NCBI GenBank assembly: GCA_958295515.1
Contig: CATQGW010000001.1
Coordinates: forward strand, 777,522-841,521
DNA from: an uncultured Dehalococcoidia bacterium
GTDB taxonomy: Bacteria > Chloroflexota > Dehalococcoidia > Bin125
Length of the DNA: 64,000 bases
Direction of reading: 5' to 3'
Notes under the pieces: model-generated
Database searches by the model: none
The model's input: the letters and a program-made list of their open reading frames with translations, nothing else
Told to the model about the DNA's origin: nothing
Translations under genes and position numbers: made by a program
Part shown: in pieces, positions 1,868 to 32,784 of the stretch
How the letters are laid out: the number at the start of each line of letters is the position of its first letter
Position numbering within the stretch: position 1 is the stretch's first letter

Positions 1868-2008
1868 CGACAGTTGGACATCCACTTCCGCACGAATCGG
1901 AGAGGGCAGCACGCCATCAAGCTCGGGCATCGGGAGCGCTTGATTGTGACCCTCGCAGACGACGGATCATTGACAATCCAAGAAGTGAGCTTGCGTCATT
2001 ATGAGTAG
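1868..2008 (+). pseudogene. higB-like toxin remnant with internal deletion (about 46 codons left)
   Basis: LDIHFRTNRRG...QHAIKLGHRERLIVTLADDGSLTIQEVSLRHYE aligns to the N- and C-terminal thirds of the intact HigB at 3398..3694 but lacks the middle; abuts higA-like gene. Confidence 0.55.
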
Positions 2009-3397: not shown

Positions 3398-3694
3398 TTG
3401 GACATCGAGTTTCGCAACCGGCGCCTTGAGCGGTTCTACTCGGTGAAGAGCGCCGCGCGAAAGCTGCCCGTTCCAGTTGTGGAGGCGTACGTTGACGCGA
3501 TCGACCTACTCAGGGCAGCGCGTGATCTCAACGCTCTGCGGGCAGTCAAAGGATTGCGTCTCGAACAACTTGAGGGATCGCGGAAGGGGCAGTATTCCAT
3601 CCGGCTCAACCGACAGTGGCGGTTGATTTTGAAGGAAGGCGACAGCAGCACGGTTGTGATCGTCTGGGACGTGAACAACCACTATCAGAAGTGA
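3398..3694 (+). CDS. higB: HigB toxin (plasmid-maintenance killer protein family, PF05015-like)
   Basis: MDIEFRNRRLERFY...LRLEQLEGSRKGQYSIRLNRQWRLILKEGD...VVIVWDVNNHYQK matches Proteus-type HigB; immediately upstream of higA with toxin-first order. Confidence 0.8.
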   Translation: MDIEFRNRRLERFYSVKSAARKLPVPVVEAYVDAIDLLRAARDLNALRAVKGLRLEQLEGSRKGQYSIRLNRQWRLILKEGDSSTVVIVWDVNNHYQK

Positions 3695-4816: not shown

Positions 4817-4895
4817 GCGGCGACGTTATGCCACTTGGCGTGGCGCGATCCGCTGGCGATCCGCTAGCCTTGCGCTGAGCTCAGGAACTGGGATT

Positions 4896-8762: not shown

Positions 8763-8869
8763 GCTGCCTTCCACCGAGCCTGCCTGAGCTGCGCAAGCCC
8801 TTGCGGGAATCTTTATGATCGCCTTATTGGCTTGCGCGCCCGTTGGGCGTTCCCTGAAGGAGTCTGAAA

Positions 8870-10600
8870 ATGGCGAAGTTCGATGTCCTGATTCGCGGCG
8901 GCACGGTGGTGGATGGCACGCGCGTGCCGAGGTTCCAGGCCGATGTCGGGATTAAGGATGGGCGGATCGCGCAGATTGGCGGGCGGATGGATCCGGCCGA
9001 CGCGGACCAGCTGCTCGAGGCCGAGGGGCTGATCGTCGCGCCCGGCTTCGTGGACCTGCACACGCACTACGACGCGCAGATTCAGTGGGATCCCTACTGC
9101 ACGATCTCGGGCTGGCACGGCGTGACCTCGGTGGTGCTGGGCAACTGCGGCTTCGGCTTCGCGCCGGTGCGCGAGGAGGAGCGGGACCGCGCGATGCTGA
9201 CGATGTCGCGCACGGAGGCGATTCCGTTCGACTCGATGAAGGCGGGGATGCTCTGGGACTGGGTTTCCTTCCCGGAGTGGCTGGACACGCTGGACCGCAT
9301 CCCCAAGGGGGTGAACTGCCTGTCGTACATGCCGATTGCGCCGCTGATGATCTGGGTGATGGGCCTGGAGGCGGCGAAGAATCGGCGGGCGACGGAGGAG
9401 GAAATCCGCGAGATGCAGCGGCTGCTGCACGAGGCGATGGATGCCGGGGCGTGCGGCTGGTCGACGCAGCGGCTGGGCGAGAACTCGGTGCAGGCGGACT
9501 ACGACGGCACGCCGATGGTGACCGACATCATGAGCGACAACGAATGCCTGGCGCTGGCCGAGGTGCTGCGGGATCGGGATGAAGGGTTCATCCAAATCAC
9601 ACAGGCGACGGGCGACATCAAGAGCGATCTGGCGTTCGAGGCGGAGCTGGCGCGCGTGTCGGGCCGCCCGATTCTGCACAACGTGATCGCGCCCAACGCG
9701 CAGCGCCCGGAGTCGCACACCAAGTCGCTCAAGTGGCTGGCCGACTGCAACGCGCGGGGCGAGCGGATTTTCGGCCAGGCCTTCACGATTCGCTCGGCCT
9801 TCGCCTACACGCTTGAGGACTGGAACCTCTACGACTCGTCGCCGGCCTGGAACTACGCGACCACCGGCAGCGTGGAGGAGAAGCAGGCGAAGTTCGCCGA
9901 TCCCGAGGTGCGCGAGCGGCTCAAGGCGGAGATGGACGACGCGATTGAGAAGCTCGGCCAGACGCAGGCGATCGGCGGCTCGATTGAGAAGGTGATGGTC
10001 CAGCATCTCGAGGCCAAGCCGGAGCTTGAGCAGTACGTCGGCCTGACGCTCGCCGAGGTCGGGGAGCGGATGGGCAAGCACCCGATCGACGCGATGCTGG
10101 ACCTGGCGCTGGCGACCGACCTCAAGGCGGAGTTCCTGACCGAGGTGACGAACGCCAACGAGGATCACATGGCGGAAATCGTCGAGTCGCCCTTCACCAT
10201 CCCGGGCGTCTCCGACGGCGGCGCGCACACCAAGTTCCTGACGGCGGGCTCGTACCCGACGGACTTCCTGATCTGGATGGTGCGCGACACGGGGAAGGTG
10301 ACGCTCGAAGAGGCGCACTACCGGCTCTCCTACCTGCCGGCGCGGGCGGGCGGCTTCATCGGTCGCGGCGCGCTGACGGAGGGCGCGCCGGCGGATGTGG
10401 TCGTCTACGACCTCGACGCGCTGAAGCTGGATCCGGAGTTCCAGGGCGAAATCGTGCATGATTTCCCGGCCGGGGAGTGGCGGCGGATTCAGCGCCCGCA
10501 CGGTTACCGCTGGATTCTGGTCAACGGCGAGGTGACGATGCAGGACGGGGAGGAGACGGGCGCGACGCCGGGCAAGTTGCTCCGCCACGGCCGCGCGTAG
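8870..10600 (+). CDS. D-aminoacylase / N-acyl-D-amino-acid deacylase family amidohydrolase, copy 1
   Basis: MAKFDVLIRGGTVVDGTRVP...GRIAQIGG...LIVAPGFVDLHTHYDAQ metal-dependent amidohydrolase signature; AAGGAG SD 8 nt upstream; 576 aa. Confidence 0.8.
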   Translation: MAKFDVLIRGGTVVDGTRVPRFQADVGIKDGRIAQIGGRMDPADADQLLEAEGLIVAPGFVDLHTHYDAQIQWDPYCTISGWHGVTSVVLGNCGFGFAPVREEERDRAMLTMSRTEAIPFDSMKAGMLWDWVSFPEWLDTLDRIPKGVNCLSYMPIAPLMIWVMGLEAAKNRRATEEEIREMQRLLHEAMDAGACGWSTQRLGENSVQADYDGTPMVTDIMSDNECLALAEVLRDRDEGFIQITQATGDIKSDLAFEAELARVSGRPILHNVIAPNAQRPESHTKSLKWLADCNARGERIFGQAFTIRSAFAYTLEDWNLYDSSPAWNYATTGSVEEKQAKFADPEVRERLKAEMDDAIEKLGQTQAIGGSIEKVMVQHLEAKPELEQYVGLTLAEVGERMGKHPIDAMLDLALATDLKAEFLTEVTNANEDHMAEIVESPFTIPGVSDGGAHTKFLTAGSYPTDFLIWMVRDTGKVTLEEAHYRLSYLPARAGGFIGRGALTEGAPADVVVYDLDALKLDPEFQGEIVHDFPAGEWRRIQRPHGYRWILVNGEVTMQDGEETGATPGKLLRHGRA

Positions 10601-11031: not shown

Positions 11032-14000
11032 GTGCGGAGCGGGTTGGGAAGATGCGGATCCATCCAAATGCTTCACAATGTCGTGCGTTTGTGGCCGCGC
11101 TTGCTGGGGCTGGTGGTGTTGGCGGGACTGCTGGGCGTGGCGGTGGTGACCATTTCGCTTGCTCGGGCTGCGCCGCCTGGGGACCTTGCGCTGACGTTGA
11201 GCCTGGTTGAGGACTCCGACAACATTGTGCCGCCGGGCTCGACGCTGCGGGTTGCGGCGACGCTGACGTATAGCAGCGATTACCACGTGTTTTTGGATGT
11301 CCCGCCCAGCGCGCTGCGCATCGCCGGGGATCTGGAGTGGGATTCGTTGGGGCGTCGCGCGCACCCCTTGACGCGCCAGGGGCACCTGGGCGGACGAGTG
11401 GGATGGGAAGACATCGCAGTGCAGGCGGATCCTGCGGGCGACATCGCTGTGTTCGGGATGTCTTGGGACTCCGGTATATGCTGCGTGGGATCCGCGGATA
11501 TCTACGTGGGTGGCGCGTTTGCGGCGCATTTTTCAGGCGCAGGACCACGGGCCAACCTATTTGGCCACAGCGTTGATGTCGGCGGAGGTGTGATTGTCAT
11601 CGGCGCGCCTGACGGAGAAAACGGCGCAGCGTATGTGTTTGAGCGCAACGCGGCCGGCGTCTGGACCGAGGTTGCCGAACTCACGCCTGGTTCCAACCCT
11701 GCGTACACGGATCCTGCAACTCAGGATAAGCCGCGGTGGTTCGGCCTCGGCGTCGCGATCAGCGACGACGGGAGCACGATCGTTATCAGCAAAGTCCCTT
11801 CACCGGGCTTGGGCGTGGCGCACAATTGGGGCGCGACCGGGCATGTGTTCACCAGGCCCGCCGGCGGTTGGCGCGATATGGACACCAATCACCCGAGTGT
11901 GACTGCGCTGCGATACCACGACGTCGGCGACGGCAACACCGACCCCGACGACATGTTCAGCATCGCGTCACGCAATGACGCATACGGCGATGCGGACATC
12001 GCCGGCAACGGTTCGGTGGTCGCGCTGGGCGGATATCCCCTGCCGCGCACTGCGGATGCGGCCGACCAGCAGGGCGCGGTGCTGATCTTCCGTCGTCCGG
12101 CGGGCGGTTGGGCCGACGCCGGCGGAGCCGATGGCATGCTGGAGCAGGATGCGGTGCTGACGGCGACGGATGACGACAGCAACAACATTCGGCTCGGTCG
12201 GGCGATTGCGATCAATGTTGATGGCAGCGTGGTGCTGGCAGGCGCCCGCGGCACGGTCGGGACGTCACTTGGATCCCTCAGCTGGCCGGGCTCGGCGTTT
12301 GTCTGGGTGCAGCCCGCGACTGGCTGGGCCGATACGAACGATGCAACGGCGACGTTGAGCGATTCGACCGCGAACAACGAAGATCAGTTTGCTGACCACG
12401 TTGCCATCAGCGACTCGGGCGATCGGATCATCGTGTCCGACAGCGGCAGCCGTGCGGCGCATGTGTTCGATAAGCCTGCGCTCGGTTGGCAGGACGACGC
12501 GTCGGCCGACTTGCTGCTTACCTCGCCGAAACCGACCTCGTTGGATCCGGAAGTTGGGACGTTGGGGGTGGGCTTCGGTGGCCACACGGCGTTGGATGGA
12601 GAGTCGACGGCGATCGTTGGGCAGCTGGTGTGGCAGCTGTCAGTCCTCCGCAGTCACGCTGGCGGCTTCGCGTTCGATCTCGCCGCTGCCGACCCGCAGG
12701 CGGGCGCTGAGCGTCTGTTCCCCTGCACATCCAGGAGCGCTGATGGTCTGACTACTTGGACCTGTTCCGTCTACGTCGGCGATACTTCGATCACGATTCC
12801 GCTGGGGACGCCTGACGGGACGTTTACGATTTCTGGCGTGCTTACTGTGGACGGCGTGGAGTACAGCGATGCGCTGGAAGTTACGATCGACGAGGTCAAT
12901 GAAGTGACTGAGGTGCAGTTCAACTTTGCTGAGTATGAGAGCGGGCTGAAGCAGGGCGAGCGGTATCCGGGCGCGATTGCGGCTGGGGAGACTACGCGGC
13001 TGCGGTTGGGTGTGCTGAATGAGCATGGGAAAGCCTCTGCCGGGGGTAGCATTGCTTCGGTGCTGTTTACGACCACCGCGGGCTCGCTGAGCACGAGCAT
13101 CGGCGGCGGCTGCATGGGCGGTGGGGGGTTGGTTTGCCAGATTCCGGTGTCGGCGCTGACGGCGGCGAACGCCGACAAGATCGACCTGACCGTTGCGCAC
13201 CCCGGGCAGGGGAGCTCCGGCGTCGCCGAAATCCGCGCCACCGTACTGGCTGTCGACGGGGAGACCTTTAACGCCGATCCCTTACGAGTGACGTTGACCG
13301 GCGAGGCTGCGTTGCTGGCGATCAGCGAACCGGCGACCAGCGTGTTGAATGTGCATACTGAGGACTTCGGCGCGGAGCGGGATGACCGCGACATGCTGAC
13401 GCTGACGGTCAGGGCGACGGACGAAGAGGGGCGGAAGGCGGCTGTGCCGACGCATTCGCGGCGCGTGGTGATCACGGGTCCCGACGGTCGCCGGGTTGAT
13501 GTGGGAGACATCCCATCCTCACCCGCGTCGGAACACGCGGTGATCGCGGTCTGGCCCAAGGTGCGGGTGACGTTTGCGCCGCACCTCGGCGCTTCGAGAA
13601 CCGCTGCGGAGCTGCTGGGCAACTATGACGTCGTCAACAAGTGGTCCCTCGGCGGCAGCTGGCAGTGGTACAGCGTTGACGCGAACGGCGATCCTGCGCG
13701 CGGGGCGACCAACTTCGTCGCCAATCAGGGCGACGTACTGCGCTTCGACGATCTCGTTCTGGACGCCGACGGCAACCTGCAGGTGGAGCTCGATGTGGAC
13801 GCCGGCCGCGCGAACCCGCTGACGCCCGGCGAGTACACGCTCGAGCTGCGCGCCGGGGCGCTGACTGCGCGACGCAGCTTCAGCGTGGTCGGGGATGCCG
13901 CCGCGCTGACGCTCAGCGAAGCGACAGGCTCGACGGAGGACGGCGGGCGGCTTTCCCTGACCGCGACGCTGACCGACGGGGACGGTAATACCGTGGCGGA

Positions 14001-14442
14001 CGGCACGCCGGTTGTCTGGGAAGAGGGCAACACGGCGGCGCAGGTGGTGCTGGTGCAGCTCTCTGTTGAGGCGAAGACGACCGATGGCCGCGCCTCGGCG
14101 ACGTATCTGGTCGTCGGGCGGGGGAGCGCCTGGGTGCGGGCGAGTTCAGGCGAGGCGGGCGATACGCGGGTGATGTTCAATCTCGGCGCGCCGCCGCCGC
14201 CGCCCGCGCCTGCCAACCCTGCGGAGTCGCTCAGCAGCCGCACGCCGGGCGCGTTCGCGGCTTGGCTCGGAGTCGGCGCGACGAGCGCGTCGGCGCTGCT
14301 GGCGGGGCTGGACGGGATCGACTCGATTGCTGTGTGGCGCGATGGGGTCTGGCTGCGCTATGAGGTGGTGGGCGGCGCAGCGGCGGGCGGCGCGGTGGAC
14401 TTTGAGGTGCGGCGCGGCGAGATCGTGCGTTTGGGCGGCTGA
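11032..14442 (+). CDS. giant secreted/surface protein, paralog 3, with FG-GAP-like repeats (probable true start at ATG 11068, MLHNVVRLWPRLLGLVVLAGLLGVAVV)
   Basis: N-terminal hydrophobic signal; FG-GAP-like motifs (NLFGHSVDVGGGVIVIGAPDGENGAAYVFE, RWFGLGVAISDDGSTIVIS, RLGRAIAINVDGSVVLAG); C-terminal ~600 aa colinear with other two paralogs ending ...VDFEVRRGEIVRLGG. Confidence 0.7.
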   Translation: MRSGLGRCGSIQMLHNVVRLWPRLLGLVVLAGLLGVAVVTISLARAAPPGDLALTLSLVEDSDNIVPPGSTLRVAATLTYSSDYHVFLDVPPSALRIAGDLEWDSLGRRAHPLTRQGHLGGRVGWEDIAVQADPAGDIAVFGMSWDSGICCVGSADIYVGGAFAAHFSGAGPRANLFGHSVDVGGGVIVIGAPDGENGAAYVFERNAAGVWTEVAELTPGSNPAYTDPATQDKPRWFGLGVAISDDGSTIVISKVPSPGLGVAHNWGATGHVFTRPAGGWRDMDTNHPSVTALRYHDVGDGNTDPDDMFSIASRNDAYGDADIAGNGSVVALGGYPLPRTADAADQQGAVLIFRRPAGGWADAGGADGMLEQDAVLTATDDDSNNIRLGRAIAINVDGSVVLAGARGTVGTSLGSLSWPGSAFVWVQPATGWADTNDATATLSDSTANNEDQFADHVAISDSGDRIIVSDSGSRAAHVFDKPALGWQDDASADLLLTSPKPTSLDPEVGTLGVGFGGHTALDGESTAIVGQLVWQLSVLRSHAGGFAFDLAAADPQAGAERLFPCTSRSADGLTTWTCSVYVGDTSITIPLGTPDGTFTISGVLTVDGVEYSDALEVTIDEVNEVTEVQFNFAEYESGLKQGERYPGAIAAGETTRLRLGVLNEHGKASAGGSIASVLFTTTAGSLSTSIGGGCMGGGGLVCQIPVSALTAANADKIDLTVAHPGQGSSGVAEIRATVLAVDGETFNADPLRVTLTGEAALLAISEPATSVLNVHTEDFGAERDDRDMLTLTVRATDEEGRKAAVPTHSRRVVITGPDGRRVDVGDIPSSPASEHAVIAVWPKVRVTFAPHLGASRTAAELLGNYDVVNKWSLGGSWQWYSVDANGDPARGATNFVANQGDVLRFDDLVLDADGNLQVELDVDAGRANPLTPGEYTLELRAGALTARRSFSVVGDAAALTLSEATGSTEDGGRLSLTATLTDGDGNTVADGTPVVWEEGNTAAQVVLVQLSVEAKTTDGRASATYLVVGRGSAWVRASSGEAGDTRVMFNLGAPPPPPAPANPAESLSSRTPGAFAAWLGVGATSASALLAGLDGIDSIAVWRDGVWLRYEVVGGAAAGGAVDFEVRRGEIVRLGG

Positions 14443-14541
14443 GCTGCTTCCCCATCGTCCTGCAAACTCGTTTTGCAATCTCTATCTTTTGCGCATTCCG
14501 GTTGGACGCCCGCGCGGCGCGGGTCGGCAAGGAGCGCTGAG

Positions 14542-16272
14542 ATGGCCAAGTTTGATGTTCTGATTCGCGGCGGCACGGTTGTGGATGGCACTCGCGTGCC
14601 GAAATTCAAGGCCGATGTCGGGATTGCGGATGGGCGGATCGCCCAGGTGGGCGGCAAGATGGATCCGGCCGATGCGGAGCAGTTGCTTGAGGCGGAGGGG
14701 CTGATCGTCGCGCCCGGCTTCGTGGACCTGCACACTCACTACGACGCGCAGATTCAGTGGGATCCGTACTGCACGATCTCCGGCTGGCATGGGGTCACGT
14801 CGGTGGTGCTGGGCAACTGCGGCTTCGGCTTCGCGCCGGTGCGCGAGGAGGAGCGCGACCGGGCGATGCTGACGATGTCGCGCACCGAAGCGATTCCCTT
14901 CGACTCGATGCAGGCGGGGATGATCTGGGACTGGGTTTCGTTCCCGGAGTGGCTGGACACGCTGGATCGCATCCCCAAGGGGGTGAACTGCCTGTCGTAC
15001 ATGCCGCTCGCGCCGCTGATGACGTGGGTGATGGGTCTGGAGGCGGCGAAGAGCCGTCGCGCCAACGACGGCGAGATTGCGGAGATGCAGCGGCTGCTCG
15101 GCGAGGCGATGGACGCAGGGGCGTGCGGCTGGTCGACGCAGCGGCTGGGCGAGAACTCGGTGCAGGCGGACTACGACGGCACGCCGATGGTGACCGACAT
15201 CATGAGCGATAACGAGTGTCTGGCGCTGGCGGAGGTGCTCGCCGAGCGCGACGAGGGCTTCATCCAGATCACGCAGTTCACCGGCGATCTCGACGCGGAC
15301 CTGGAGTTTCAGTCGCGCCTGGCGGCGGCTGCGCGGCGTCCGATTCTGCACAATCTGATCGCGGTGAGCCGCGAGAACGCCGATGTGCATCGCAACCGCA
15401 TGCGGTGGCTTGAGGAGTGCAACGCGCGGGGGGAGCCGATCTTCGGCCAGGCGGCGACGATTCGCGCGGCGTTCACCTTCACGCTCGAGGACTGGAATCT
15501 CTACGACTCGTCGCCGGCCTGGAACTACGCCACGACCGGCACGCGCGAGGAGAAGCTGGAGAAGTTCGCCGACGCCGGGGTGCGCGCCAACATCAGGGCG
15601 GAGATCGACGAGGCGATCAAGAAACTCGGTCAGACCCAGGCGCTGGGCGGGCCGATTGAGGAGCTGCTGATCCAGGATCTGGCGCACAAGCCCGAGTTGG
15701 AGGAATACGTGGGGATGACCGTGGGGCAGGTCGCCGAAGCGCGCGGCGTTCACGCCGTCGATGCGATGCTCGATCTGGCGCTCGAGACCGACCTTGCGGC
15801 CGAGTTCCTGACGCCGATGCGCGAGCAGAACGACGAGTGGACGGCGGAGATGATGTCCTCGCCCTATGTGGTGCCGGGCGTCTCCGACGGGGGCGCGCAC
15901 ACGAAGTTCCTGACGGCCGGCTCCTACCCGACCGATTTCCTGATCTGGCTGGTGCGGGATACGCAGCGGCTGACGCTGGAGGAGGCGCACTACCGGCTCT
16001 CCTACCTGCCGGCCCGTGCGGCGGGTTTCCGGGACCGCGGCGCGATTATCGAGGGCGCGCCGGCCGATGTGGTCGTCTACGACCTCGACGGGCTGAAGAT
16101 CACGCCGGAGTGGACGGGCGAGGTTGTCCACGACTTCCCGGCGGGGGAGTGGCGGCGGGTGCAGCGTCCGGACGGCTATCGCTGGATTCTGGTCAATGGG
16201 GAGGTGACGTTCGAGGACGGCAAGGAGACGGGCGCGACGCCGGGCAAGCTGCTCCGCCACGGCCGCGGCTAG
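14542..16272 (+). CDS. D-aminoacylase family amidohydrolase, copy 2
   Basis: MAKFDVLIRGGTVVDGTRVPKFKADVGIADGRIAQVGG... about 85% identical to 8870..10600; AAGGAG SD. Confidence 0.8.
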   Translation: MAKFDVLIRGGTVVDGTRVPKFKADVGIADGRIAQVGGKMDPADAEQLLEAEGLIVAPGFVDLHTHYDAQIQWDPYCTISGWHGVTSVVLGNCGFGFAPVREEERDRAMLTMSRTEAIPFDSMQAGMIWDWVSFPEWLDTLDRIPKGVNCLSYMPLAPLMTWVMGLEAAKSRRANDGEIAEMQRLLGEAMDAGACGWSTQRLGENSVQADYDGTPMVTDIMSDNECLALAEVLAERDEGFIQITQFTGDLDADLEFQSRLAAAARRPILHNLIAVSRENADVHRNRMRWLEECNARGEPIFGQAATIRAAFTFTLEDWNLYDSSPAWNYATTGTREEKLEKFADAGVRANIRAEIDEAIKKLGQTQALGGPIEELLIQDLAHKPELEEYVGMTVGQVAEARGVHAVDAMLDLALETDLAAEFLTPMREQNDEWTAEMMSSPYVVPGVSDGGAHTKFLTAGSYPTDFLIWLVRDTQRLTLEEAHYRLSYLPARAAGFRDRGAIIEGAPADVVVYDLDGLKITPEWTGEVVHDFPAGEWRRVQRPDGYRWILVNGEVTFEDGKETGATPGKLLRHGRG

Positions 16273-16343
16273 GGATCGCTCCACCCGCTCCGGCTCTTGC
16301 ACGAATCCCCGCCGCAAGGCGGGGGTTCGGGTACCGTACAGAA

Positions 16344-17168
16344 ATGGATCCGCCCAGCAAGAGCGCGCTCAATCGCCTCGGTAGTCGGCTGAGAAAATCT
16401 GATCCGCCCTCGGCGGAAGATCGGGAGGTTTACCGCGAGTACGCGGCCACGTTTCTTCCTCCGCTCAATGAGGCGATCGAGGCGGTCGTCGAGAACTCCG
16501 GGTCTGTGAACTTGGCCGAGCTCGGGGCGCGAATCAAGAAATTCGAGTCAGTCGTCGCCAAGCTCCGTCGTCAGCCAACGAAGTTAGCCAGCATTGAGGA
16601 CATCGGTGGATGTCGTCTGGTTGTGCTCACGCTGGGAGACATTGAAGATGTTCATCAGTCCTTGGATCGGACATTGAACATCGTGCGGTTCCGCGATTAC
16701 CGCGAGGATGCCCACGATGGCTATCGGGCAGTCCATCTGGTTGCGCAAATGACGCCAAGACACCGCATCGAGATCCAGATTCGGACCGAACTTCAGAACG
16801 AGTGGGCCAACCTCTCCGAGCACTTGTTCCAAAGGGTTGACCCGGAGATCAAATACGGTGGCGGGCCACGAGGCGTTCGTCAGAGGCTTGATGCGCTGTC
16901 GGACGAGGGGTGGGAGCTGGATCGTCTGAGACAACGTCTGGCTGATGGGGACCTAGACTACCGCACGCTACGCCAGGCCGCGTTGTCCTCAGCGAGATTT
17001 GGCGTGGAGTGGAACGCTGAGATGATGGAGAGAGTGAGACACGTTGAGCAAGAGATGGGGCGGATCTTTGAACAGCTAAACATCTCGCTCGGCGATTTTC
17101 GCGCTAGAATAGATGCGCTGAGGCACGATGGGAGTTTGACCGATGAAGCACTTCGTCCTCCTCTATGA
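16344..17168 (+). CDS. RelA/SpoT-domain (alarmone synthetase-like) protein, small stand-alone; toxSAS-like candidate
   Basis: DIGGCRLVVLTLGD...DGYRAVHLVAQ...IEIQIRTELQNEWA matches RelA/SpoT synthetase core (D-x-G-x-R, GYxSxH, EIQIRT..W); 275 aa; 3' end overlaps next gene by 26 nt. Confidence 0.7.
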   Translation: MDPPSKSALNRLGSRLRKSDPPSAEDREVYREYAATFLPPLNEAIEAVVENSGSVNLAELGARIKKFESVVAKLRRQPTKLASIEDIGGCRLVVLTLGDIEDVHQSLDRTLNIVRFRDYREDAHDGYRAVHLVAQMTPRHRIEIQIRTELQNEWANLSEHLFQRVDPEIKYGGGPRGVRQRLDALSDEGWELDRLRQRLADGDLDYRTLRQAALSSARFGVEWNAEMMERVRHVEQEMGRIFEQLNISLGDFRARIDALRHDGSLTDEALRPPL

Positions 17169-17451
17169 CCACCTGACCCACGAGGTACAACTGGACGAGT
17201 TCACCGACCAAGGCGCTGCGTTGGATGCGCTTCGCACAGCAGAGTTGGCGCTGAAACCACACAAAGAAGTCGTGCTTTTTCTGGCAGAGTCGGAGAGAGC
17301 GTTGAAGATCACGCACTCCTCGTATTTCAGCAACGGACGCGGCAACGGCGCGACACAGGATGCGCCCGTCGATCTCGAATCACTCACGAGATTGGTCGAG
17401 CGAGCTGAGTCCGATTTGCAGAGTGCGCACGATGCGCTCGCGGCCAGATAG
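17143..17451 (+). CDS. small acidic protein (102 aa) overlapping 3' end of RelA/SpoT gene; candidate antitoxin-like partner
   Basis: MKHFVLLYDHLTHEVQLDEFTD...EVVLFLAESERALKITHSSYF; start inside upstream gene; paralog at 17610..17861. Confidence 0.5.
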   Translation: MKHFVLLYDHLTHEVQLDEFTDQGAALDALRTAELALKPHKEVVLFLAESERALKITHSSYFSNGRGNGATQDAPVDLESLTRLVERAESDLQSAHDALAAR

Positions 17452-17609
17452 ATGAACAAACCTGGCAGAATGCGCTCGCGCTGTTTCCGCACTGCCCATG
17501 ATCTCGGCTCAGGCGACGAGGGGTCCCGCAGCCACCGGTCTGAGCGGCTCAAAGATGCGTTCATCGCCCGCTTGAGCGCGATGGGCCTTGTGGGACGGGA
17601 GGACGAATC

Positions 17610-17861
17610 ATGAAGTGGATTTTGCTGCACTGCGACCACGACACCGACGAGGTGACGCTGACTGAGTTTGACCGCGAAGACTCCGACGCGGCGATCGCCG
17701 CGCTCAACGCGGCTGAGCGGGGCAAGCGGCCGCAGGACGAAGTTGTGCTCTTCTTCTCCGAAGGTGAAGAGTCGCTCCGCCGCACCCACTCCCGCTATTT
17801 CTACGATGAGCGCGAAATTGCCGAGCAGCTCCGCAAGACGCTCGCCGCTATCCGCCGCTAG
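17610..17861 (+). CDS. small acidic protein (83 aa), paralog of 17143..17451
   Basis: MKWILLHCDHDTDEVTLTEFDRED...EVVLFFSEGEESLRRTHSRYFYDE; same motif set as upstream paralog. Confidence 0.5.
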   Translation: MKWILLHCDHDTDEVTLTEFDREDSDAAIAALNAAERGKRPQDEVVLFFSEGEESLRRTHSRYFYDEREIAEQLRKTLAAIRR

Positions 17862-17956
17862 CCTTACGCTGGGCTCGGGAATTGGGACTATGCGTAGGGG
17901 CACGATGGACATGGCTGTGAGTAGGGCTGCCGGGCGGTTGCTGCTGCGGCAATTGC

Positions 17957-17969
17957 GGGGGGGGGGGGG
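17957..17969 (+). repeat. G13 homopolymeric tract at translation start of giant protein paralog 2
   Basis: 13 consecutive G (gcaattgc-G13-taATG); upstream conserved leader ORF from ATG 17890 is out of frame with the main ORF at this tract length. Confidence 0.9.
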
Positions 17970-17971
17970 TA

Positions 17972-20900
17972 ATGCGCCTCTGGCGGCGCGTGTTTCGGCC
18001 GACTGCGCTGCTGATTGCGTTGATCGGCGTGCTCGCGCTCGGCGGCGTGGCGCTGCGCTCGGAGGTTGCCGCGCAGACCAACGACGTGACCGTGGAGTTC
18101 ACCCGCGTCGCCCACATGAAGCGAAACCAGATCCATGGCTTCCTCCAAGGCACCACCACGCGTCCGAACGACCTGGCCATCAGCGGGGCAGTCCGAGTGC
18201 ACATCAGGTTCAGCGAGGAGGTCAGCGGCTTCACGCTGGCGAGCCTGACGGCGAGCAACGCGACGCTCTCGAACTTGCACATGCGGCAGACCAACTGGCG
18301 TTGGACGTTCAGCGTGACGCCGACGGCGGACGGCGCGGTCAGCATCAGCATCGCGGCGGGCGCGGTGCAGGCCGCCGCCGACGCGACGCGCGGGAATGCG
18401 TCGGGGCAATTGAGCATGACCGCCGCGCTCGGCGCGCCCAAAGTGATCTGGGCCGACCTCACCACCTCGGGGTCAACCTGGCAACGCCATAGGCAGCGGT
18501 ACAGCGCCGGCACCCGGATTGACCTGACGGTGATCTTCAGCGAGTACGTGACGGTCAGCGGCGTCCCGACGGTCGGTCTGCACACGACCAGCAAGCCGGC
18601 GCCCAAGGCGTACGATGTGCCGTTTGCCGCAAGCGACGGGTCGGTGCTGCTCTTCAGCTACACCGTGCCGGCCGGGCAGAACTGGTCCCGCGGCTGGACC
18701 ACGATCACTTCGTCGGCGATCAGCCTGCCGTCGAGCGCCTCGATCACCGACGCGGATGGCAACGCGGCGACGCTGACCCTGCCGCCGCGGGTGATCGAGG
18801 CCGAGCGGCTCTTGGCCATGCCCGCGCCCGGCGAACGCGGGCCGCAAGGCGTGGTCGGCGACTCCCACGACTGGACGATCACCTTTAGCGAGCCGGTCAC
18901 GGTGACTCAGGCGCCCGGCGCCGAAGCGCCGTGGATCGCGATCAGAGCCACCCTCCAGGACGGCAACTCGGGAACGGTGCGCGCGAACTACCTGGAAGGC
19001 AGCGGCACGGATACGCTCACCTTCCGTTACACGGTGCGCGCCGCCGACAACGTCGCTACCGATGCCAGCTATGGCTTCGACAGCGCACGGTATGTCCGCG
19101 TCCCCGACGGCGCAGGCGTCCGCAACGCGGCGGGGCTTGATGTCAGCGGGCGATTTGCCACTGCCGCCAACGTCGCCATCCAGCGCGAAGGGACGCAGTC
19201 CGTGCGCGGAGCCAGACTCTCGTTCTCGTCGGTCCACGACGTCACCTTCCACCTGACCAGCAGCGATCCGGACCGGCTGACGATCGAACCCAGTTCGCTC
19301 ACGTTCTTGAGCAGAAACACCGACGCCGACCACTGGAGGACCTGGCAGGCCGTCACCTACACGGCGCACAGTGACGATGATGAGGAAACCAACGAAGTCA
19401 CGGTCTCCTACCGCTTCGAGAGCGATTACACGGCCATCGACGGCCTCACCGGCAGGTACCTCCTGTTTCGCATCCAGGAAGCCGCAGTCGGGGCGCCGAC
19501 GGAGGTCCCGAGCGGCACCCGGTCCGAAGGGACGCGGTTCACGATTCCATTCGCGCTGACGGAGCCGTTGGAGCAGGATGTGATCGTCCACCTGAGCAGC
19601 AGCGATCCGGCGCGGATGACGTTCGAGCCCAGCGCGGTCAGGTTCCTGGGTACCAACACCGACCCCGACCACTGGATGATCCCGCAGACCGTGACCGTTA
19701 CGCTGCTCCCCGACAGCGATGGCGAAGACGACGAAGTCATGGTTCTCTACCGCTACGAGAGCGTTGACCCGCCCGTTCACGGCACCGAGGGAACGCTCGC
19801 GACATACACCGCCGCGGACAGCGCCAACGCGGACTACGACGCGGCGAGTCTCCCGGCGGACCTGCGGCTGGAGCTGGGGCTGGTCGAGGATTCCGACCAG
19901 ATTGTTCCGCCCGGGGGCGAGCGGAAGGTTGCGGTGAAGCTGATCTACAGCGGCGGCTACGTACCGCTGCAGGTCTCGGCGGACAGCTGGCTACGGATCA
20001 GCGGCAGCGTGGAGTGGGAGGACCGAGATCGGCGGCGGCTCGGTCTCGCGCGGCAGGAGACTCAGTACCTGGGCAGCGCGCCGCCCTGCCAGAGCAGCAC
20101 GATCGACACAGTCGAGACCTGGAGCTGCGATGTGCTGATCGACGCCGCGCGCTTCGTGGTGCCGCCGGGCACGCCCGACGGAGCATTCACGATCTCCGGC
20201 AACATAGTCGTCAATGGTCGCGACTACCCCGGCGAGCTGGAGGTGACGGTGGGCACGGTCGATGAGGTCGCCTCGGCCGAGCTGGACTTTGCGACCGATA
20301 CCGCTGATGATCGTCCGTATCCCGACGCGATTGCGGTTGGTGAGAGCACGACGCTGCAGTTGGCGGTGCTGAACGAGCACGACAAGGCCTCGCATACCGG
20401 CGAAATCAGCTCGCTCGTGTTCACCACCACGGGCGGGGCATTGAGTCTCGCCCACCCGGTGGGCGAGTGCGTGGGCGGGGGCGGCAGCAGCTGCCAGGTG
20501 CCGGTGGATCTGCTGACGACCGACAACACGGACCAGGTGCGGGTGACGCTCACGCATCCCGGGCTGGAGCAGCTGGGCGCGGGTATCGTGCGTGCGCTCG
20601 TGGTGTCCAAAGACGGCGACACCATCAACGCCGATCCGCTCACGGTGACCTTCCTCGGCCCCGCCGAGTCGATCATGATTGGCGAACCTGCCACGGCAGT
20701 ACTTAACTACGACCCGCCGGAGCGGGACGGCGGCGGCGAAGATGTCCGCGATCTGCTGAAGCTGTCGGTCATCGGGTCCGATGACAGCGGCCGCACGGTG
20801 CCGCTGACGGCGCCGTTCGGCAGAGTGATCGTTAGAGCCCCGGATGGCATGGTTGTCTGGAGCGGCTCGAGCTATGAGGTGCAGAACGGGATGCGGATCG

Positions 20901-21658
20901 ACTGGCCGCTGCGCGAGCGGGACGATGACGGGGCGCTCGTGGACGGCGACTCCAGCAAGAGCGGGATTCAGCCGAAATATATCCGCGATGCGGACGGCAA
21001 CCTCCAGGTGCAAATCGATATTGAGGCGGACGAGGCATCGCAGCTGACGAAGGGTGACTACACGATCGAGCTGCGCGCTATCGGGGAGACGGCCGAGCAG
21101 ACCTTCTCGGTCGGCGGCGCGCCGGCGGAGATTGCGCTGAGCGAACCGGGAGGCTCAACGGAAGACGGCGGGCGGCTGACCGTGACGGCGAGATTGACCG
21201 ACAGGGACGGCAACCCGGTGGGGGACGGGACGCCGGTTCGCTGGCAAGAGGGCAGCGTGGGGTCGCATGTGGTGTTGGTGCAGATCTCTGCTGAGTCGAG
21301 GACCAGCGGCGGCAGCGCGTCGGCGACGTATCTGGTGGTTGGGCGGGGCACCGCTTGGGTGCGGGCGAGCTCAGGCGAGGCGGCGGACACGCGGGTGATG
21401 TTCAACCTCGGAGTGCCGCCGCCGCCGCCTAACCCTGCGGAGCAGCTCAGCAGCCGTCGGCCCGGCGCGTTCGCGGCCTGGCTCGGCAGGGGCGCGACGA
21501 GCGCGTCGGAGCTGTTGGCGGGGCTTGACGGGATCGACTCGATCACCGTTTGGCGCGACGGGGGCTGGCTGCGCTATGAGGTGGTGGACGGTGCAGCGGC
21601 ATCCGGTGGGGTGGACTTTGAGGTGCGGCGGGGCGAGATCGTGCGTCTGGGCGGCTGA
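17972..21658 (+). CDS. giant secreted/surface repeat protein, paralog 2
   Basis: MRLWRRVFRPTALLIALIGVLALGGVALRSEVAAQ signal peptide; colinear with paralog 1 throughout including duplicated ~100 aa domain and C-terminal ...VDFEVRRGEIVRLGG. Confidence 0.75.
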   Translation: MRLWRRVFRPTALLIALIGVLALGGVALRSEVAAQTNDVTVEFTRVAHMKRNQIHGFLQGTTTRPNDLAISGAVRVHIRFSEEVSGFTLASLTASNATLSNLHMRQTNWRWTFSVTPTADGAVSISIAAGAVQAAADATRGNASGQLSMTAALGAPKVIWADLTTSGSTWQRHRQRYSAGTRIDLTVIFSEYVTVSGVPTVGLHTTSKPAPKAYDVPFAASDGSVLLFSYTVPAGQNWSRGWTTITSSAISLPSSASITDADGNAATLTLPPRVIEAERLLAMPAPGERGPQGVVGDSHDWTITFSEPVTVTQAPGAEAPWIAIRATLQDGNSGTVRANYLEGSGTDTLTFRYTVRAADNVATDASYGFDSARYVRVPDGAGVRNAAGLDVSGRFATAANVAIQREGTQSVRGARLSFSSVHDVTFHLTSSDPDRLTIEPSSLTFLSRNTDADHWRTWQAVTYTAHSDDDEETNEVTVSYRFESDYTAIDGLTGRYLLFRIQEAAVGAPTEVPSGTRSEGTRFTIPFALTEPLEQDVIVHLSSSDPARMTFEPSAVRFLGTNTDPDHWMIPQTVTVTLLPDSDGEDDEVMVLYRYESVDPPVHGTEGTLATYTAADSANADYDAASLPADLRLELGLVEDSDQIVPPGGERKVAVKLIYSGGYVPLQVSADSWLRISGSVEWEDRDRRRLGLARQETQYLGSAPPCQSSTIDTVETWSCDVLIDAARFVVPPGTPDGAFTISGNIVVNGRDYPGELEVTVGTVDEVASAELDFATDTADDRPYPDAIAVGESTTLQLAVLNEHDKASHTGEISSLVFTTTGGALSLAHPVGECVGGGGSSCQVPVDLLTTDNTDQVRVTLTHPGLEQLGAGIVRALVVSKDGDTINADPLTVTFLGPAESIMIGEPATAVLNYDPPERDGGGEDVRDLLKLSVIGSDDSGRTVPLTAPFGRVIVRAPDGMVVWSGSSYEVQNGMRIDWPLRERDDDGALVDGDSSKSGIQPKYIRDADGNLQVQIDIEADEASQLTKGDYTIELRAIGETAEQTFSVGGAPAEIALSEPGGSTEDGGRLTVTARLTDRDGNPVGDGTPVRWQEGSVGSHVVLVQISAESRTSGGSASATYLVVGRGTAWVRASSGEAADTRVMFNLGVPPPPPNPAEQLSSRRPGAFAAWLGRGATSASELLAGLDGIDSITVWRDGGWLRYEVVDGAAASGGVDFEVRRGEIVRLGG

Positions 21659-21689
21659 GCGAGAGGCCGGCTACGCCGAGTTCTGAGCC

Positions 21690-21765
21690 GCCTTCCTTTC
21701 GCTGCTTCTACGATGCGCGCGGGATCGCCGAGCAGCTCCGCGAGGCGCTCGCTGCTATTGACTGC
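21690..21765 (+). pseudogene. 3'-end remnant of the small MK(H/W)-family gene (…FYDARGIAEQLREALAAI…)
   Basis: cttctacgatgcgcgcgggatcgccgagcagctccgcgaggcgctcgctgct parallels the 3' end of 17610..17861 (SRYFYDEREIAEQLRKTLAAIRR). Confidence 0.5.
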
Positions 21766-21769
21766 CGCG

Positions 21770-23371
21770 CTAGGGGCGGATGATGCGCTTGGGGCGCTGG
21801 GCGAGGCGCTTGAGCATCGGCTGGGCGGCTTCGATGAAGCGGAAGGCGATGCGGCGCGTTTCGCGCGGGTCGATCAGGTCGATCACGTCGAAGTTGTGGG
21901 CGGCTTTCATCGGCGAGCGCAGGCGCAGGAGGCGGTTTTCGATCATCTCGCGGTGCGCTTCGGGGTTCGGCGCGTTCTCGATCTCGCGCTTGTAGGCGGC
22001 GGCGACGCCGCCTTCGATGGGGATGCCACCCCACTCGCCGGCGGGCCAGCCAAAGCGCATGTTGACGCCGAGCGGCTCGCCCATGCTGTTGGGGGCGTCG
22101 GCGGCGACGCCGTAGGACTTGCGGATGTTGAACTCGACTTTGGGCACTTCGGCCTCGTAGGCGGCGATCAGCGCCCGCGTGCCGCGCCGCATTGTGGCCT
22201 GCTTCTCCGCCTGCGAGCCGAGCATGAAGCCGGGCATATCGAGGAAGATCACCATGGGCAGGTTGAAGCCGTCACAGAGGTCGACGAAGTGGGTGAACTT
22301 GTCGGCGGCGTCGCCGTTCATCGCGCCGGCCATGACCAGCGGATCGCTGGCGACCACGCCGACGCTGTAGCCGCCGATCCGGGCGAAGCCGGTGATGATC
22401 GCGCCGCCCCAGTGGGGGCGCATCTCGAAGAACTCGCCGTTGTCCACGACCAGGCGCACCAGCTTGCGCGGGTCGTAGGCGCGCTTGCGGTTTTCGGGGA
22501 TGATTCGCAGCAGTTCTTCGACGCGGCGGTGCGGGTCGTCGCCGGTCTCAATCCGCTCGGGCACTTCGTTGGTGGTGTTGGGCAGGTAGGAGAGGAACTG
22601 CTTGATCTGGTCGAAGGCGTCCTCTTCGGACTCGGCCTCGTTGTCGACCTGACCGCTCTGGTGGACATGCACGGCGGCGCCGCCCAGCTCCTCCTTGTTG
22701 AAGGTCTCGCCGATGGCGCGGCGCACGACGGGGGGTCCTGAGGGGAAGATCTGGGACTGGCCTTTGATCATGACGGTGAAGTGGGAGAGCAGGGCGAAGG
22801 CGGCGGGCGCGCCGGCGACGGAGCCCATGATCCCTGCGGCGACGGGCACCTTGTTGAGCAGCTGGATGTGGCGCCACCAGGTCTGACCGCCGGGCAGCGC
22901 CATGCGGCCCTCTTCCTCGTCGCGCTTGGCGCTGTGCCCCACGCCCTCGATCAGCTGCACGTAGGGCAGCCCGTACTGCGCTGCGAACGGTGTGGCAAAC
23001 TGCGACGCGCCCTTCGAGACGTTGTGCGGGCTGCCGCCGGAGATCGTGAAGTCGTCGCCGCCGATCACGATGTTGCGCCCGTCGATGGAGCCCATGCCCA
23101 TCACGAACGCGCCGGGGGTGAAATCGCGCAGGTTGCCGTCGCCGTCGTACTCGTAGGCGCCGACCAGCGGTCCGGCTTCGAAGAAGGAGTCGGGGTCGAG
23201 GAATCTGTCGATTCGCTCGCGGATGGTCTGGCGCCCGCCGGCGTGCTGGCGGGCGACCCGATCGGGTCCGCCCATCTCGCGCGCCAGCTCCTTGATGTAG
23301 TTGATCTCGTCCACTGCGCCCTGCCAGTCCTGGCCGGGCTTCCACGATTCGCGCGTCTGGTCCGCAGGCAT
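21770..23371 (-). CDS. acyl-CoA carboxylase carboxyltransferase beta subunit (propionyl-/methylmalonyl-CoA carboxyltransferase family)
   Basis: 533 aa; carboxyltransferase N and C subdomains (..GGAMNGDAADKFTHFVDLCDGFNLPMVIFLDMPGFMLG..). Confidence 0.8.
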   Translation of the reverse strand: MPADQTRESWKPGQDWQGAVDEINYIKELAREMGGPDRVARQHAGGRQTIRERIDRFLDPDSFFEAGPLVGAYEYDGDGNLRDFTPGAFVMGMGSIDGRNIVIGGDDFTISGGSPHNVSKGASQFATPFAAQYGLPYVQLIEGVGHSAKRDEEEGRMALPGGQTWWRHIQLLNKVPVAAGIMGSVAGAPAAFALLSHFTVMIKGQSQIFPSGPPVVRRAIGETFNKEELGGAAVHVHQSGQVDNEAESEEDAFDQIKQFLSYLPNTTNEVPERIETGDDPHRRVEELLRIIPENRKRAYDPRKLVRLVVDNGEFFEMRPHWGGAIITGFARIGGYSVGVVASDPLVMAGAMNGDAADKFTHFVDLCDGFNLPMVIFLDMPGFMLGSQAEKQATMRRGTRALIAAYEAEVPKVEFNIRKSYGVAADAPNSMGEPLGVNMRFGWPAGEWGGIPIEGGVAAAYKREIENAPNPEAHREMIENRLLRLRSPMKAAHNFDVIDLIDPRETRRIAFRFIEAAQPMLKRLAQRPKRIIRP

Positions 23372-23438
23372 CGGCGATCCTCCTCACACAGTGCTTCAGT
23401 TGAAGGTCGCGCTCAGTGTACGAGCAGGGCGCGCGGGG

Positions 23439-24335
23439 TCAGGTGACCGCGATCACAACTCCCAGGATCGTGGCAATGGCGATCATCGCGGCGATTGTGA
23501 TGGACATCACCAGTGTGATTCGGTCGTGGACGCCGACGATTGACTTCTGTATCTCCAGCTGAGACTCCAGCACCGATGTCCGCATTTTGCCCTCGACTTC
23601 GGCCAGAGCGTTCTGCGTCTCAACCCGGGCTCCCTTGAGTTCGGCGCGCATTTCGGCGAGGTCTTTCTGGGTTTCGGTGCGCATTTCGGCGAGGTCTTTC
23701 TGGGTTTCGGCGCGTGCCTCTGCCAGCATCGCCTGCATTTCGGCGCGGTCTTTTTGGATTTCGGCGCGCATTTCGGCGAGGTCTTTCTGGGTTTCGGCGC
23801 GTGCCTCTGCCAGCATCGCCTGCATTTCGGCGCGCATTTCGGCGAAGCCTCTCTGGGTTTCGGCGCGCATTTCGGCGAGGTCTCTCTGGGTTTCGGCGCG
23901 CGCCTCTGCCAGCATCGCCTGCATTTCGGCGAAGTCTCTCTGGGTTTCGGCGCGCGCCTCTGCCAGCATCGCCTGCATTTCGGCGAGGTCTTTCTGGGTT
24001 TCGGCGCGGGTCTCTATCAGCATCGCCTGCATTTCGGCGAGGTCTTTTTGGGTTTCGACGCGGGATTCCCTGAGTTCGGCGCGCATTTCGGCGAGGTCTT
24101 TTTGCGTCTGCGCCTGGGATTCCGCGACCAGGGCGCGCATCTCCGCCACCGCCACGCTGATTCCTGATTCAATCCGCTCCAGCGCCCGGTCCTGGTCTTC
24201 CTGCCGCACGAGATCGTTCTGCGAGGCCTCGACCTGCTCGGCGAGCACATCCACCACCTCCACCGCCGCCGCTTCGTCGGCGAGGCCGCGGCGCACCAGC
24301 ACATCGCGCAGTCTCGGCCTGTCGAGGATCGCCAT
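23439..24335 (-). CDS. coiled-coil tandem-repeat protein with C-terminal transmembrane anchor
   Basis: Repeats of AETQKDLAEMQAMLAEAR over about 200 aa; C-terminal LVMSITIAAMIAIATILGVVIAVT; underlying DNA 23640..24110 is a degenerate tandem repeat. Confidence 0.6.
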   Translation of the reverse strand: MAILDRPRLRDVLVRRGLADEAAAVEVVDVLAEQVEASQNDLVRQEDQDRALERIESGISVAVAEMRALVAESQAQTQKDLAEMRAELRESRVETQKDLAEMQAMLIETRAETQKDLAEMQAMLAEARAETQRDFAEMQAMLAEARAETQRDLAEMRAETQRGFAEMRAEMQAMLAEARAETQKDLAEMRAEIQKDRAEMQAMLAEARAETQKDLAEMRTETQKDLAEMRAELKGARVETQNALAEVEGKMRTSVLESQLEIQKSIVGVHDRITLVMSITIAAMIAIATILGVVIAVT

Positions 24336-32551: not shown

Positions 32552-32643
32552 GGAGAGGTGTCCGAGTGGCCGAAGGAGCCGATCTCGAAAATCGGTAGGT
32601 GCGGTGACGTGCCTCGTGGGTTCGAATCCCACCCTCTCCGCCA
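32552..32643 (+). tRNA. tRNA-Ser (anticodon CGA)
   Basis: GGAGAGG/CCTCTCC acceptor stem, anticodon loop cTCGAaa, long variable arm, GTTCGAATCC T-loop, encoded CCA. Confidence 0.85.
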
Positions 32644-32694: not shown

Positions 32695-32784
32695 GGAGAG
32701 GTGCTGGAGTGGCCGATCAGGCACGCCTGGAAAGCGTGTAGGGGCGCAAGTCCCTCGTGGGTTCGAATCCCACCCTCTCCGCCA
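32695..32784 (+). tRNA. tRNA-Ser (anticodon GGA)
   Basis: Same acceptor stem; anticodon loop cTGGAaa; long variable arm; encoded CCA. Confidence 0.85.

Follow-up and report, generated by a model that had tools for sequence, protein, structure and literature searches.

A predicted toxSAS toxin–antitoxin cassette beside an apparent orphan antitoxin gene in the chromosome of an uncultured Dehalococcoidia bacterium

The DNA studied here, called the window, is a stretch of 64,000 nucleotides (nt) from an uncultured Dehalococcoidia bacterium of the Chloroflexota (assembly GCA_958295515.1, contig CATQGW010000001.1, positions 777,522 to 841,521 of the forward strand). It carries a gene for a stand-alone synthetase of the RelA/SpoT type, named here SAS1, followed by two small genes, A and B. 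A preliminary description of the locus, made from the sequence alone, had proposed that the synthetase could be a small alarmone synthetase acting as a toxin (toxSAS), with the small proteins as its partners in a toxin–antitoxin (TA) module. The three open reading frames (ORFs) that it listed are all present on the plus strand, as follows:

16344..17168, plus strand: SAS1, stand-alone RelA/SpoT synthetase of 274 amino acids (aa), predicted toxSAS toxin of the PhRel/CapRel clade
17143..17451, plus strand: A, predicted antitoxin of 102 aa with a pseudo-zinc-finger domain (pZFD), predicted cognate partner of SAS1
17610..17861, plus strand: B, predicted pZFD antitoxin of 83 aa, resident partner of a lost synthetase gene (SAS2) and now apparently an orphan, intact and conserved

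The SAS1 gene has 274 codons plus the stop, one residue fewer than the 275 previously counted, and overlaps A by exactly 26 nt. Gene A was correctly described as encoding an acidic protein of 102 aa (isoelectric point, pI, 5.2), and B is acidic as well (pI 5.0). Both small proteins are paralogs (49% identity over 68 aa, E 2e-13; 43% in another comparison), in such a way that the earlier account of B as an 83-aa paralog holds for size and kinship, while the distance from the stop of A to the start of B is 158 nt and not 160. Gene A is read in frame +1 relative to SAS1, from an ATG with a Shine-Dalgarno-like GGGAG 8 nt upstream. The overlap of 26 nt is unusual, toxin and antitoxin genes of relatives overlapping by a 4-nt ATGA, as is usual in Dehalococcoidia. 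SAS1 is closed by its stop codon and A has a new ATG preceded by a Shine-Dalgarno sequence; they are separate genes and do not encode the single polypeptide of fused CapRel.

The ATG at 16344 was taken as the correct start of SAS1 because the resulting N-terminus (MDPPSKSALNRLG) aligns with those of homologs (e.g., MELPSKGALDRAG). A longer, GTG-initiated ORF from 15837 was rejected as the synthetase gene, as the homologs begin at the position of this ATG, and a 53-aa ORF at 17452-17613 was rejected as a gene, its 3' third being a remnant of SAS2 (see below). No further synthetase gene was found in the window besides SAS1. The possibility that the small ORFs are non-coding, which the preliminary description had left standing, was also considered. 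Both match the small-protein family profile (A at 1.6e-24, B at 3.3e-29), both contain the near-invariant family residues A28, E44, V46, T59, H60, Y63 and F64, and the ratio of nonsynonymous to synonymous substitution (dN/dS) between B and its orthologs is around 0.1. These data, together with the conserved linkage described below, indicate that A and B are real genes and not chance ORFs.

The (p)ppGpp-synthetase core attributed to SAS1 was confirmed, with its GYRAVH and EIQIRT..W motifs. A search with the RelA_SpoT hidden Markov model, suggested earlier as a check, gave a match of 1.7e-17 at residues 63-160, which was the only significant Pfam domain, in agreement with the reported lack of hydrolase and regulatory domains. 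Against the NCBIfam equivalog model for YjbM/RelQ (NF053588) the protein scored 41 bits, the cut-off being 320, and it matched the PADLOC model PDC-S33 at 2e-30 over positions 8-207 of 349. A synthetase family profile was built from 98 homologs and run against the PDB. The top match was CapRel (7.5e-23, residues 13-300 of the 373-aa chain), with FaRel2 far behind (2e-4), and Tas1 was not among the matches at E 0.01 or better. Profile-to-profile comparison with hhalign related the family to the PhRel toxin of phage Phrann, gp29 (99.6%, E 2.4e-24), and to CapRelSJ46 (98.8% over 308 columns). The ATP-coordinating arginines and the G-loop tyrosine of CapRel (R79, R116 and Y155) align with R63, R91 and Y127 of SAS1, which retains all 15 invariant columns of its family. 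PhRel and CapRel are published sister groups that have a homologous antitoxin in common. As judged from the equivalog score, SAS1 is not an ortholog of RelQ or RelP. Behind the synthetase core there is also a KYGGGP motif (SAS1 residues ~168-175, window ~16845-16868), nearly invariant in the family (alignment A3), whose counterpart is RYGAS in Phrann gp29 and which is absent from CapRelSJ46.

The small proteins, for which the preliminary description recognised no family, gave no match in Pfam and NCBIfam searches. However, they can be placed in the ATphRel/ATcapRel family of pZFD antitoxins. The small-protein comparison profile (139 members) matched ATphRel of Phrann, gp30, by hhalign (99.3%, E 3.8e-20), with an identical LKRTHSRYF motif, and matched at 99.1% a small gene located 3' of a Corynebacterium phage synthetase gene. 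The model PDC-S33 matched B at 1.1e-7 (positions 265-342) and A at 2e-3 (positions 265-330). As this model matches the synthetase in its N-terminal part and the small proteins in its C-terminal part, a fused form has to exist somewhere; CapRelSJ46 from Salmonella phage SJ46 matches it at 7e-87 over positions 4-342, across the whole model, which identifies PDC-S33 as the family of fused CapRel. A literature search on "PDC-S33" returned nothing. With HMMER, a small-protein profile detected 720 clusters (counted at 50% identity) at E 0.001 or better among 1.84 billion representatives, the best 150 of them being nearly all stand-alone proteins of 73-130 aa. Their consensus ends in EVVLL.A.SE..LR.THSRYF, of which the T, H, Y and F of the last part are near-invariant. 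Among 177,635 PDB sequences, the top of the list was the C-terminal antitoxin domain of CapRel (residues 307-371).

Structural models were consistent with this assignment. The AlphaFold model of B (predicted local distance difference test, pLDDT, 92.4) has a beta-beta-alpha-beta-alpha-alpha order, with a three-stranded sheet, a helix between strands 2 and 3, and two C-terminal helices around the THSRYF turn, an order of elements that agrees with the published description of the pZFD (PMC9712102). Its first Foldseek match in the PDB was CapRel 7ztb (probability 0.90, E 0.15). Residues V338, L339, Y355 and F356 of CapRel have identical counterparts in the aligned small proteins (V, L, Y and F), and Y352 aligns with a histidine; in CapRel, mutation of V338, L339, A351, Y352 or Y355 makes the protein constitutively toxic. 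Considering the sequences, A and B are members of the ATphRel/ATcapRel family, an assignment that rests on Phrann gp30 and PDC-S33 and not on direct similarity to CapRel. Gene A is further predicted to encode the cognate antitoxin of SAS1: its K.TH(S/G)SYF signature and its long tail of a loop plus a helix recur in the C-terminal domain of the fused protein P0023 and in the partner of P0032-type toxins, P0023 and the P0032-type toxins being the closest relatives of SAS1.

In order to know how regularly both gene families occur together, species-representative genomes were scanned, which returned 26 loci, 25 of them with a member of the small family. The search used a narrower alignment (A1), so these loci are biased to relatives that contain LRRTHSRYF. 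A synthetase gene of the SAS1 family was found directly upstream of the small gene, on the same strand, in 23 of the 25; to look for homologs of the small proteins beside synthetase genes in other genomes had been suggested earlier as a check. The 25 loci span Dehalococcoidia, Chloroflexia, Ilumatobacteraceae, Microbacterium, Rhodococcus, Solirubrobacterales, Vulcanimicrobiales, Terriglobia and Phycisphaerae. The alternative named in the preliminary description, a conserved RelQ/RelP ortholog lacking a small partner in its relatives, agrees neither with this linkage nor with the RelQ equivalog score given above. In the other two of the 25 loci, both from Terriglobia (L027 794-1021 and L032 2869-3096), the small gene stands alone, with no synthetase gene upstream, and looks like an orphan antitoxin of another phylum; the upstream neighbour of the second one is a membrane protein gene on the opposite strand.

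The closest homologs of SAS1 are fusions of 418-436 aa, 52-56% identical to it in the core, in which the synthetase is connected through a coiled coil and an acidic repeat linker to an A-like domain. When aligned with MAFFT, 75 of 75 stand-alone small proteins were placed on this A-like domain, and the model of a fused homolog (pLDDT 85) had CapRel as its best PDB match (1.7e-13). One fused gene lies directly 3' of the same amidohydrolase gene as in the window. Split forms are the majority within the family. In another case (P0189), a synthetase N-terminus is fused to a small protein. At locus L042 (1280-2737), and at L043 alike, in a context unrelated to the window and beside ilvC-like and ACT-domain genes, two small-family genes come after a synthetase that is 50% identical to SAS1; they encode 103 and 111 aa, are separated by 19 nt and have 41% identity between them.

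The history of the three-gene arrangement was reconstructed from close relatives. SAS1 and A each form a singleton cluster restricted to this contig of 1.29 Mb. By contrast, the 90% cluster of B has members in three other genomes, two of which have the gene order of the window (Big_12 protein, amidohydrolase, module, Big_12 protein, carboxyltransferase). In one relative (L045), a different synthetase, SAS2 (269 aa), is joined by an ATGA overlap to an ortholog at least 90% identical to B. The window is 92% identical to L045 up to 16329 and identity resumes at 95% from 17541, in such a way that 1211 nt of the window (16330-17540) stand in for 770 nt of L045 (4165-4934). The left flank (13762-16329) is 92-93% identical to both L045 and a further relative, L044. 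Position 17541 equals 4935 of L045, which lies 69 nt from the 3' end of SAS2, intact in that genome, and the C-termini encoded from there align (ERLKDAFIARLSAMGLVGREDES in the window, ERLKDAFIARVSAMSPLEWGES in L045, each followed by the stop codon). The remnant of SAS2 still holds the Shine-Dalgarno sequence of B and the ATGA stop/start junction. The features of this replacement and of the flank beside it are the following:

16330..17540, plus strand: putative incoming cassette of 1211 nt, comprising a promoter-like element, SAS1, A and an 89-nt spacer (17452-17540)
17541..17613, plus strand: SAS2 remnant, the final ~23 codons of the displaced toxin gene, ending in ERLKDAFIARLSAMGLVGREDES and the stop codon
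16307..16324, plus strand: GC-rich hairpin CCCCGCC-GCAA-GGCGGGG, directly 3' of the amidohydrolase stop codon
16332..16337, plus strand: -10-like hexamer TACCGT, 6 nt 5' of the SAS1 ATG

The base composition of the cassette sets it apart, with a GC content of 0.586 against 0.671 for the window, only 1.75% of the stretches of equal size being as low. At third codon positions GC is 0.65 in SAS1 and 0.70 in A, in comparison with 0.82 in B and 0.86-0.89 in the neighbouring genes. SAS1 is ~35-41% identical to SAS2-type toxins. At the cassette borders no meaningful direct or inverted repeats were detected, and an Rfam search at gathering thresholds gave nothing in 14000-24000. The nearest tRNA genes lie at 32.5 kb, and therefore the site is not a tRNA-linked integration site; they are two adjacent tRNA-Ser genes on the plus strand (32552-32643 and 32695-32784, anticodons CGA and GGA), unrelated to the module. 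These data support that SAS1, A and their own promoter-like element came as one lower-GC cassette of 1.2 kb, which would have overwritten SAS2 leaving its last ~23 codons and B, so that B appears as the orphan antitoxin of a displaced module. The earlier idea of a duplicated partner, which could be a spare or decoy antitoxin, has to be replaced, as regards the origin of B, by one in which B was the resident antitoxin of the older module; a recent tandem duplication of A was rejected, B being at least 90% identical to SAS2-coupled genes and only 43-49% to A.

The same site has changed repeatedly among close Dehalococcoidia relatives. Loci L015 and L016 have 95% identical flanks; the former contains SAS2 and B, and the latter a third synthetase (SAS3) with its own small gene (sm1), then 16 nt of the SAS2 3' end, then B. 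Locus L008 is arranged like L016. The toxin slot of L044 (4820-4960) holds a chimeric scar, in which 15 codons from the 5' end of SAS2 run into the final 22 codons of an sm1-type antitoxin gene. An intact B ortholog follows the scar, which points to yet another module lost from the site. Locus L010 contains a decayed fusion of the SAS2 tail to a truncated B-type gene. Toxins at this site are 35-47% identical, in contrast to 75-93% for the DNA of the flanking amidohydrolase gene. The states found are thus SAS2+B, SAS1+A+B, SAS3+sm1+B, B alone with remnants, and a fused gene. From these alignments the site is a turnover hotspot where B usually survives: it was retained in every replaced or deleted state except in L010, where it is truncated.

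Expression signals were also looked for. A scan for two-hexamer sigma-70 promoters found no site in 16150-18050, and a scan of the same interval for intrinsic terminators found none; the hairpin at 16307-16324, which lies in the conserved left flank outside the cassette, was not called because it has no T-run. Manual comparison revealed a -10-only pattern, TAnnnT, which precedes the start codon of the synthetase by exactly 6 nt in 14 of the 17 loci from Chloroflexota, divergent cassette types included, and by 7 nt in one further locus. In the window the corresponding TACCGT sits just inside the incoming cassette. This position suggests leaderless or near-leaderless transcripts, each cassette bringing its own promoter. 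As there is no terminator-like site between A and B, read-through into B is plausible.

Taken together, we consider it probable that the locus holds a type II toxSAS module of the PhRel/CapRel clade, in which SAS1 is the toxin, A its antitoxin and B the orphan of the displaced SAS2 module. The order toxin then small protein antitoxin, already put forward in the preliminary description, is supported by the profile matches to CapRel/PhRel and to gp30. The pairs PhRel:ATphRel and CapRel:ATcapRel have been validated as TA systems and their antitoxins are homologous (PMC7229694), and pZFD antitoxins block the ATP donor site of tRNA-pyrophosphorylating toxSAS (PMC9712102, PMC11782079). By analogy with PhRel and CapRel, SAS1 would most likely move pyrophosphate from ATP to the 3'-CCA end of tRNA, stopping translation. 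A would likely block the ATP donor site of SAS1 with its (H/Y)xxY turn: by homology, its EVVLF strand and THxxYF turn align with V338, L339, A351, Y352 and Y355 of CapRel, which plug that site. The cassette of SAS1 and A, with a -10-like element placed for a leaderless transcript, would have overwritten SAS2 and left B as an orphan. A role in phage defence is possible by analogy, since protection against phages is known both for fused CapRel and for Phrann gp29/gp30; in the flanking genes examined, neither phage genes nor a trigger were evident.

Several observations weigh against this interpretation. RelQ scores 4e-22 with the synthetase profile, near the 7.5e-23 of CapRel, though in the core only and over a shorter span, and a PDB search with the single SAS1 sequence ranks RelP and RelQ first (1e-9 to 1e-8). 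SAS1 is assigned to the PhRel/CapRel clade as a whole, from the profile and hhalign comparisons given above. Compared directly with the solved CapRel, the small proteins reach marginal values (hmmsearch E 0.03-0.085, hhalign probability 37%, Foldseek E 0.15), and the first rank of CapRel in the searches with B is not significant taken by itself. Their motif is HxxY (T-H-x-x-Y-F) and not the published YxxY: the first position has a histidine, as in the HSRY of the validated gp30, and the second tyrosine, which is critical in ATfaRel2 (Y54) and CapRel (Y355), is retained. Finally, the CapRel of Mycobacterium, a validated relative, is weakly toxic (PMC7229694), so SAS1 could be mild as well.

The role of B is where another explanation has most in its favour. 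B could be a working second antitoxin, or a second sensor, for SAS1, the three-gene set being selected and not a relic, which we regard as possible but doubtful. B is intact, with all near-invariant family residues and its Shine-Dalgarno sequence, and is separated from A by no terminator-like site; a toxin with two small paralogs recurs in L008 and L016 and, in the unrelated context of L042 and L043, with partners 41% identical; and in L044 the toxin and most of another antitoxin gene are gone while B is intact. Nevertheless, B is documented as the original partner of SAS2, the identity of A to B (43-49%) and of SAS1 to SAS2-type toxins (~35-41%) is low, and the homologous ATcapRel and ATphRel failed to cross-neutralise each other's toxins (PMC7229694, Table 1). 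The dN/dS of ~0.1 mostly reflects divergence before orphaning. We find it improbable that SAS1 kills through synthesis of (pp)pApp and ATP depletion, like FaRel and Tas1, with no tRNA modification. The synthetase fold is common to both activities and no sequence motif examined tells them apart; however, published work ties antitoxin type to activity: Tis1-like or hydrolase antitoxins act on makers of (pp)pApp by blocking the acceptor site, and pZFDs with an intact motif go with tRNA-modifying toxSAS (PMC11782079). Both A and B belong to the pZFD family and retain the key tyrosine, neither a hydrolase gene nor a Tis1-like gene lies next to them, and the match to FaRel2 is weak (2e-4), Tas1 being absent from the PDB matches at E 0.01 or better.

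The two remaining explanations seem very hard to sustain. In one of them SAS1 would be a non-toxic housekeeping synthetase of the RelQ/RelP type making (p)ppGpp, and the small proteins ordinary regulators, as the single-sequence matches to RelP and RelQ and the presence of the module at a syntenic chromosomal site in several Dehalococcoidia genomes might be taken to say. The RelQ equivalog score lies far below its cut-off, toxins at the site are swapped, deleted or fused among relatives and are much less conserved (35-47%) than the flanks (75-93%), the partner of SAS1 is in a validated antitoxin family, and SAS1 itself is a singleton with atypical GC. In the other, SAS1 and A would be a frameshifted and decaying CapRel-like fused gene, which would make the two-gene arrangement an artefact. 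The closest homologs of SAS1 are indeed fused, A is in frame +1, the joined product would have ~368 aa, near the 373 of CapRel, and the overlap of 26 nt departs from the 4-nt ATGA of relatives. Yet the ATG of A aligns with residue 1 of stand-alone members and has GGGAG 8 nt upstream, the SAS1/A junction contains no homopolymer, split forms are the majority of the family, and the invariant residues of SAS1 and A are all intact.

It could also be that selection keeps B as a gatekeeper that cross-neutralises related toxSAS toxins at one chromosomal hotspot. We put this forward as a speculation that is rather unlikely to hold; the variety of states at the syntenic site, and the toxin with two partners at the unrelated locus L042, speak for it. 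If it were true, B would let new toxin cassettes enter and old ones be deleted, and the three-gene versions would have one toxin under two different pZFD proteins, possibly two sensors. The module itself adds little, since toxSAS with pZFD antitoxins are already well characterised. What the locus contributes is an extension of the range of PhRel/CapRel-type pairs to Dehalococcoidia (Chloroflexota) and, through related loci, to Terriglobia and Phycisphaerae; a full-text literature search found no paper naming both toxSAS and Chloroflexi. The antitoxin family (~720 clusters at 50% identity) has no Pfam model, so that annotation pipelines leave its members unnamed, and the PADLOC candidate PDC-S33 can now be read as fused CapRel. 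The near-identical genomes with intact, swapped, deleted and fused states at one site form a testable natural series, which bears on antitoxin specificity, cross-protection and the interconversion of split and fused toxSAS.

The surroundings of the module were also inspected. Three paralogous genes for surface-type Big_12/FG-GAP proteins of 1373, 1136 and 1228 aa (4641-8762, 11032-14442 and 17972-21658, plus strand), whose 3' ends have 80-88% DNA identity, are interspersed with two Amidohydro_3 paralogs (8870-10600 and 14473-16272, plus strand), so that the toxin module lies within an array of segmental duplications. In relatives, each of these genes is present in one to two copies. Just behind the last Big_12 gene there is one further feature:

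21697..21765, plus strand: truncated copy of a B-type 3' end (FRCFYDARGIAEQLREALAAID), just 3' of the 1228-aa Big_12 gene

Residues 62-81 of B match this copy by tblastn (75% identity, E 6e-5). The copy covers the last ~20 codons of a B-type gene. L045 has the same truncated copy (8763-8822), which dates it before the cassette swap, and it suggests that the third large gene, or the whole block, was inserted into or beside an older B-type gene. Upstream there is a HigB-like toxin gene (3398-3694, plus strand, Pfam 2.9e-15), followed immediately by a gene with HTH_3 and Peptidase_M78 domains (3695-4816, plus strand), and a second HTH/Peptidase_M78 gene lies at 2001-3119 (plus strand). These genes make up additional modules of the TA type. 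The same HigB-like and HTH/Peptidase_M78 pairs lie upstream of the toxSAS locus in L006 and L010. With such pairs 12-14 kb upstream of the module, the region is rich in accessory modules.

The arrangement can finally be compared with known systems. Classical type II TA systems include orphan, or "anti-addiction", antitoxins as a general concept. The locus resembles them in that the antitoxin gene persists after loss of the toxin, as with B in the window and in L044, the solo genes of L027 and L032, and P0189; the persistence of B as an orphan may be neutral.

FaRel2:ATfaRel2 of Coprobacillus sp. D7 is similar to the module of the window in having two genes and a stand-alone pZFD antitoxin, which acts by blocking the ATP donor site (PMC11782079), but differs in that FaRel2 is only a distant match to the SAS1 family (2e-4). 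A circular permutation has been reported for ATfaRel2, as well as a lack of sequence similarity to the CapRel-type domain, and it was absent among the matches of the small-protein profile. CapRelSJ46 (PDB 7ZTB) is closer: like SAS1, A and B together, it matches PDC-S33, and it has the ATP-site arginines and the G-loop tyrosine in common with SAS1. The overall identity between SAS1 and CapRelSJ46 is ~22%, and the first tyrosine of the CapRel YxxY is a histidine in the family of the window. CapRelSJ46 is fused, whereas the system of the window is split, though fused relatives of SAS1 exist at the same chromosomal site. CapRel senses phages by binding of the capsid protein, the phage protein bound to the pZFD triggering defence. 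The unfused CapRel:ATcapRel of Actinobacteria is, together with CapRelSJ46, a close known system.

In PhRel:ATphRel (gp29:gp30) of Phrann the order is the same as in the window, a toxin gene and then a small antitoxin gene, and SAS1 is ~24-36% identical to gp29. Phrann is a Mycobacterium phage with one gene of the antitoxin family, whereas the module described here is chromosomal and not part of a prophage, belongs to an uncultured Dehalococcoidia bacterium with no phage genes noted in the flanks examined, and has two. In that phage pair gp29 is toxic and gp30 neutralises it (PMC7229694).

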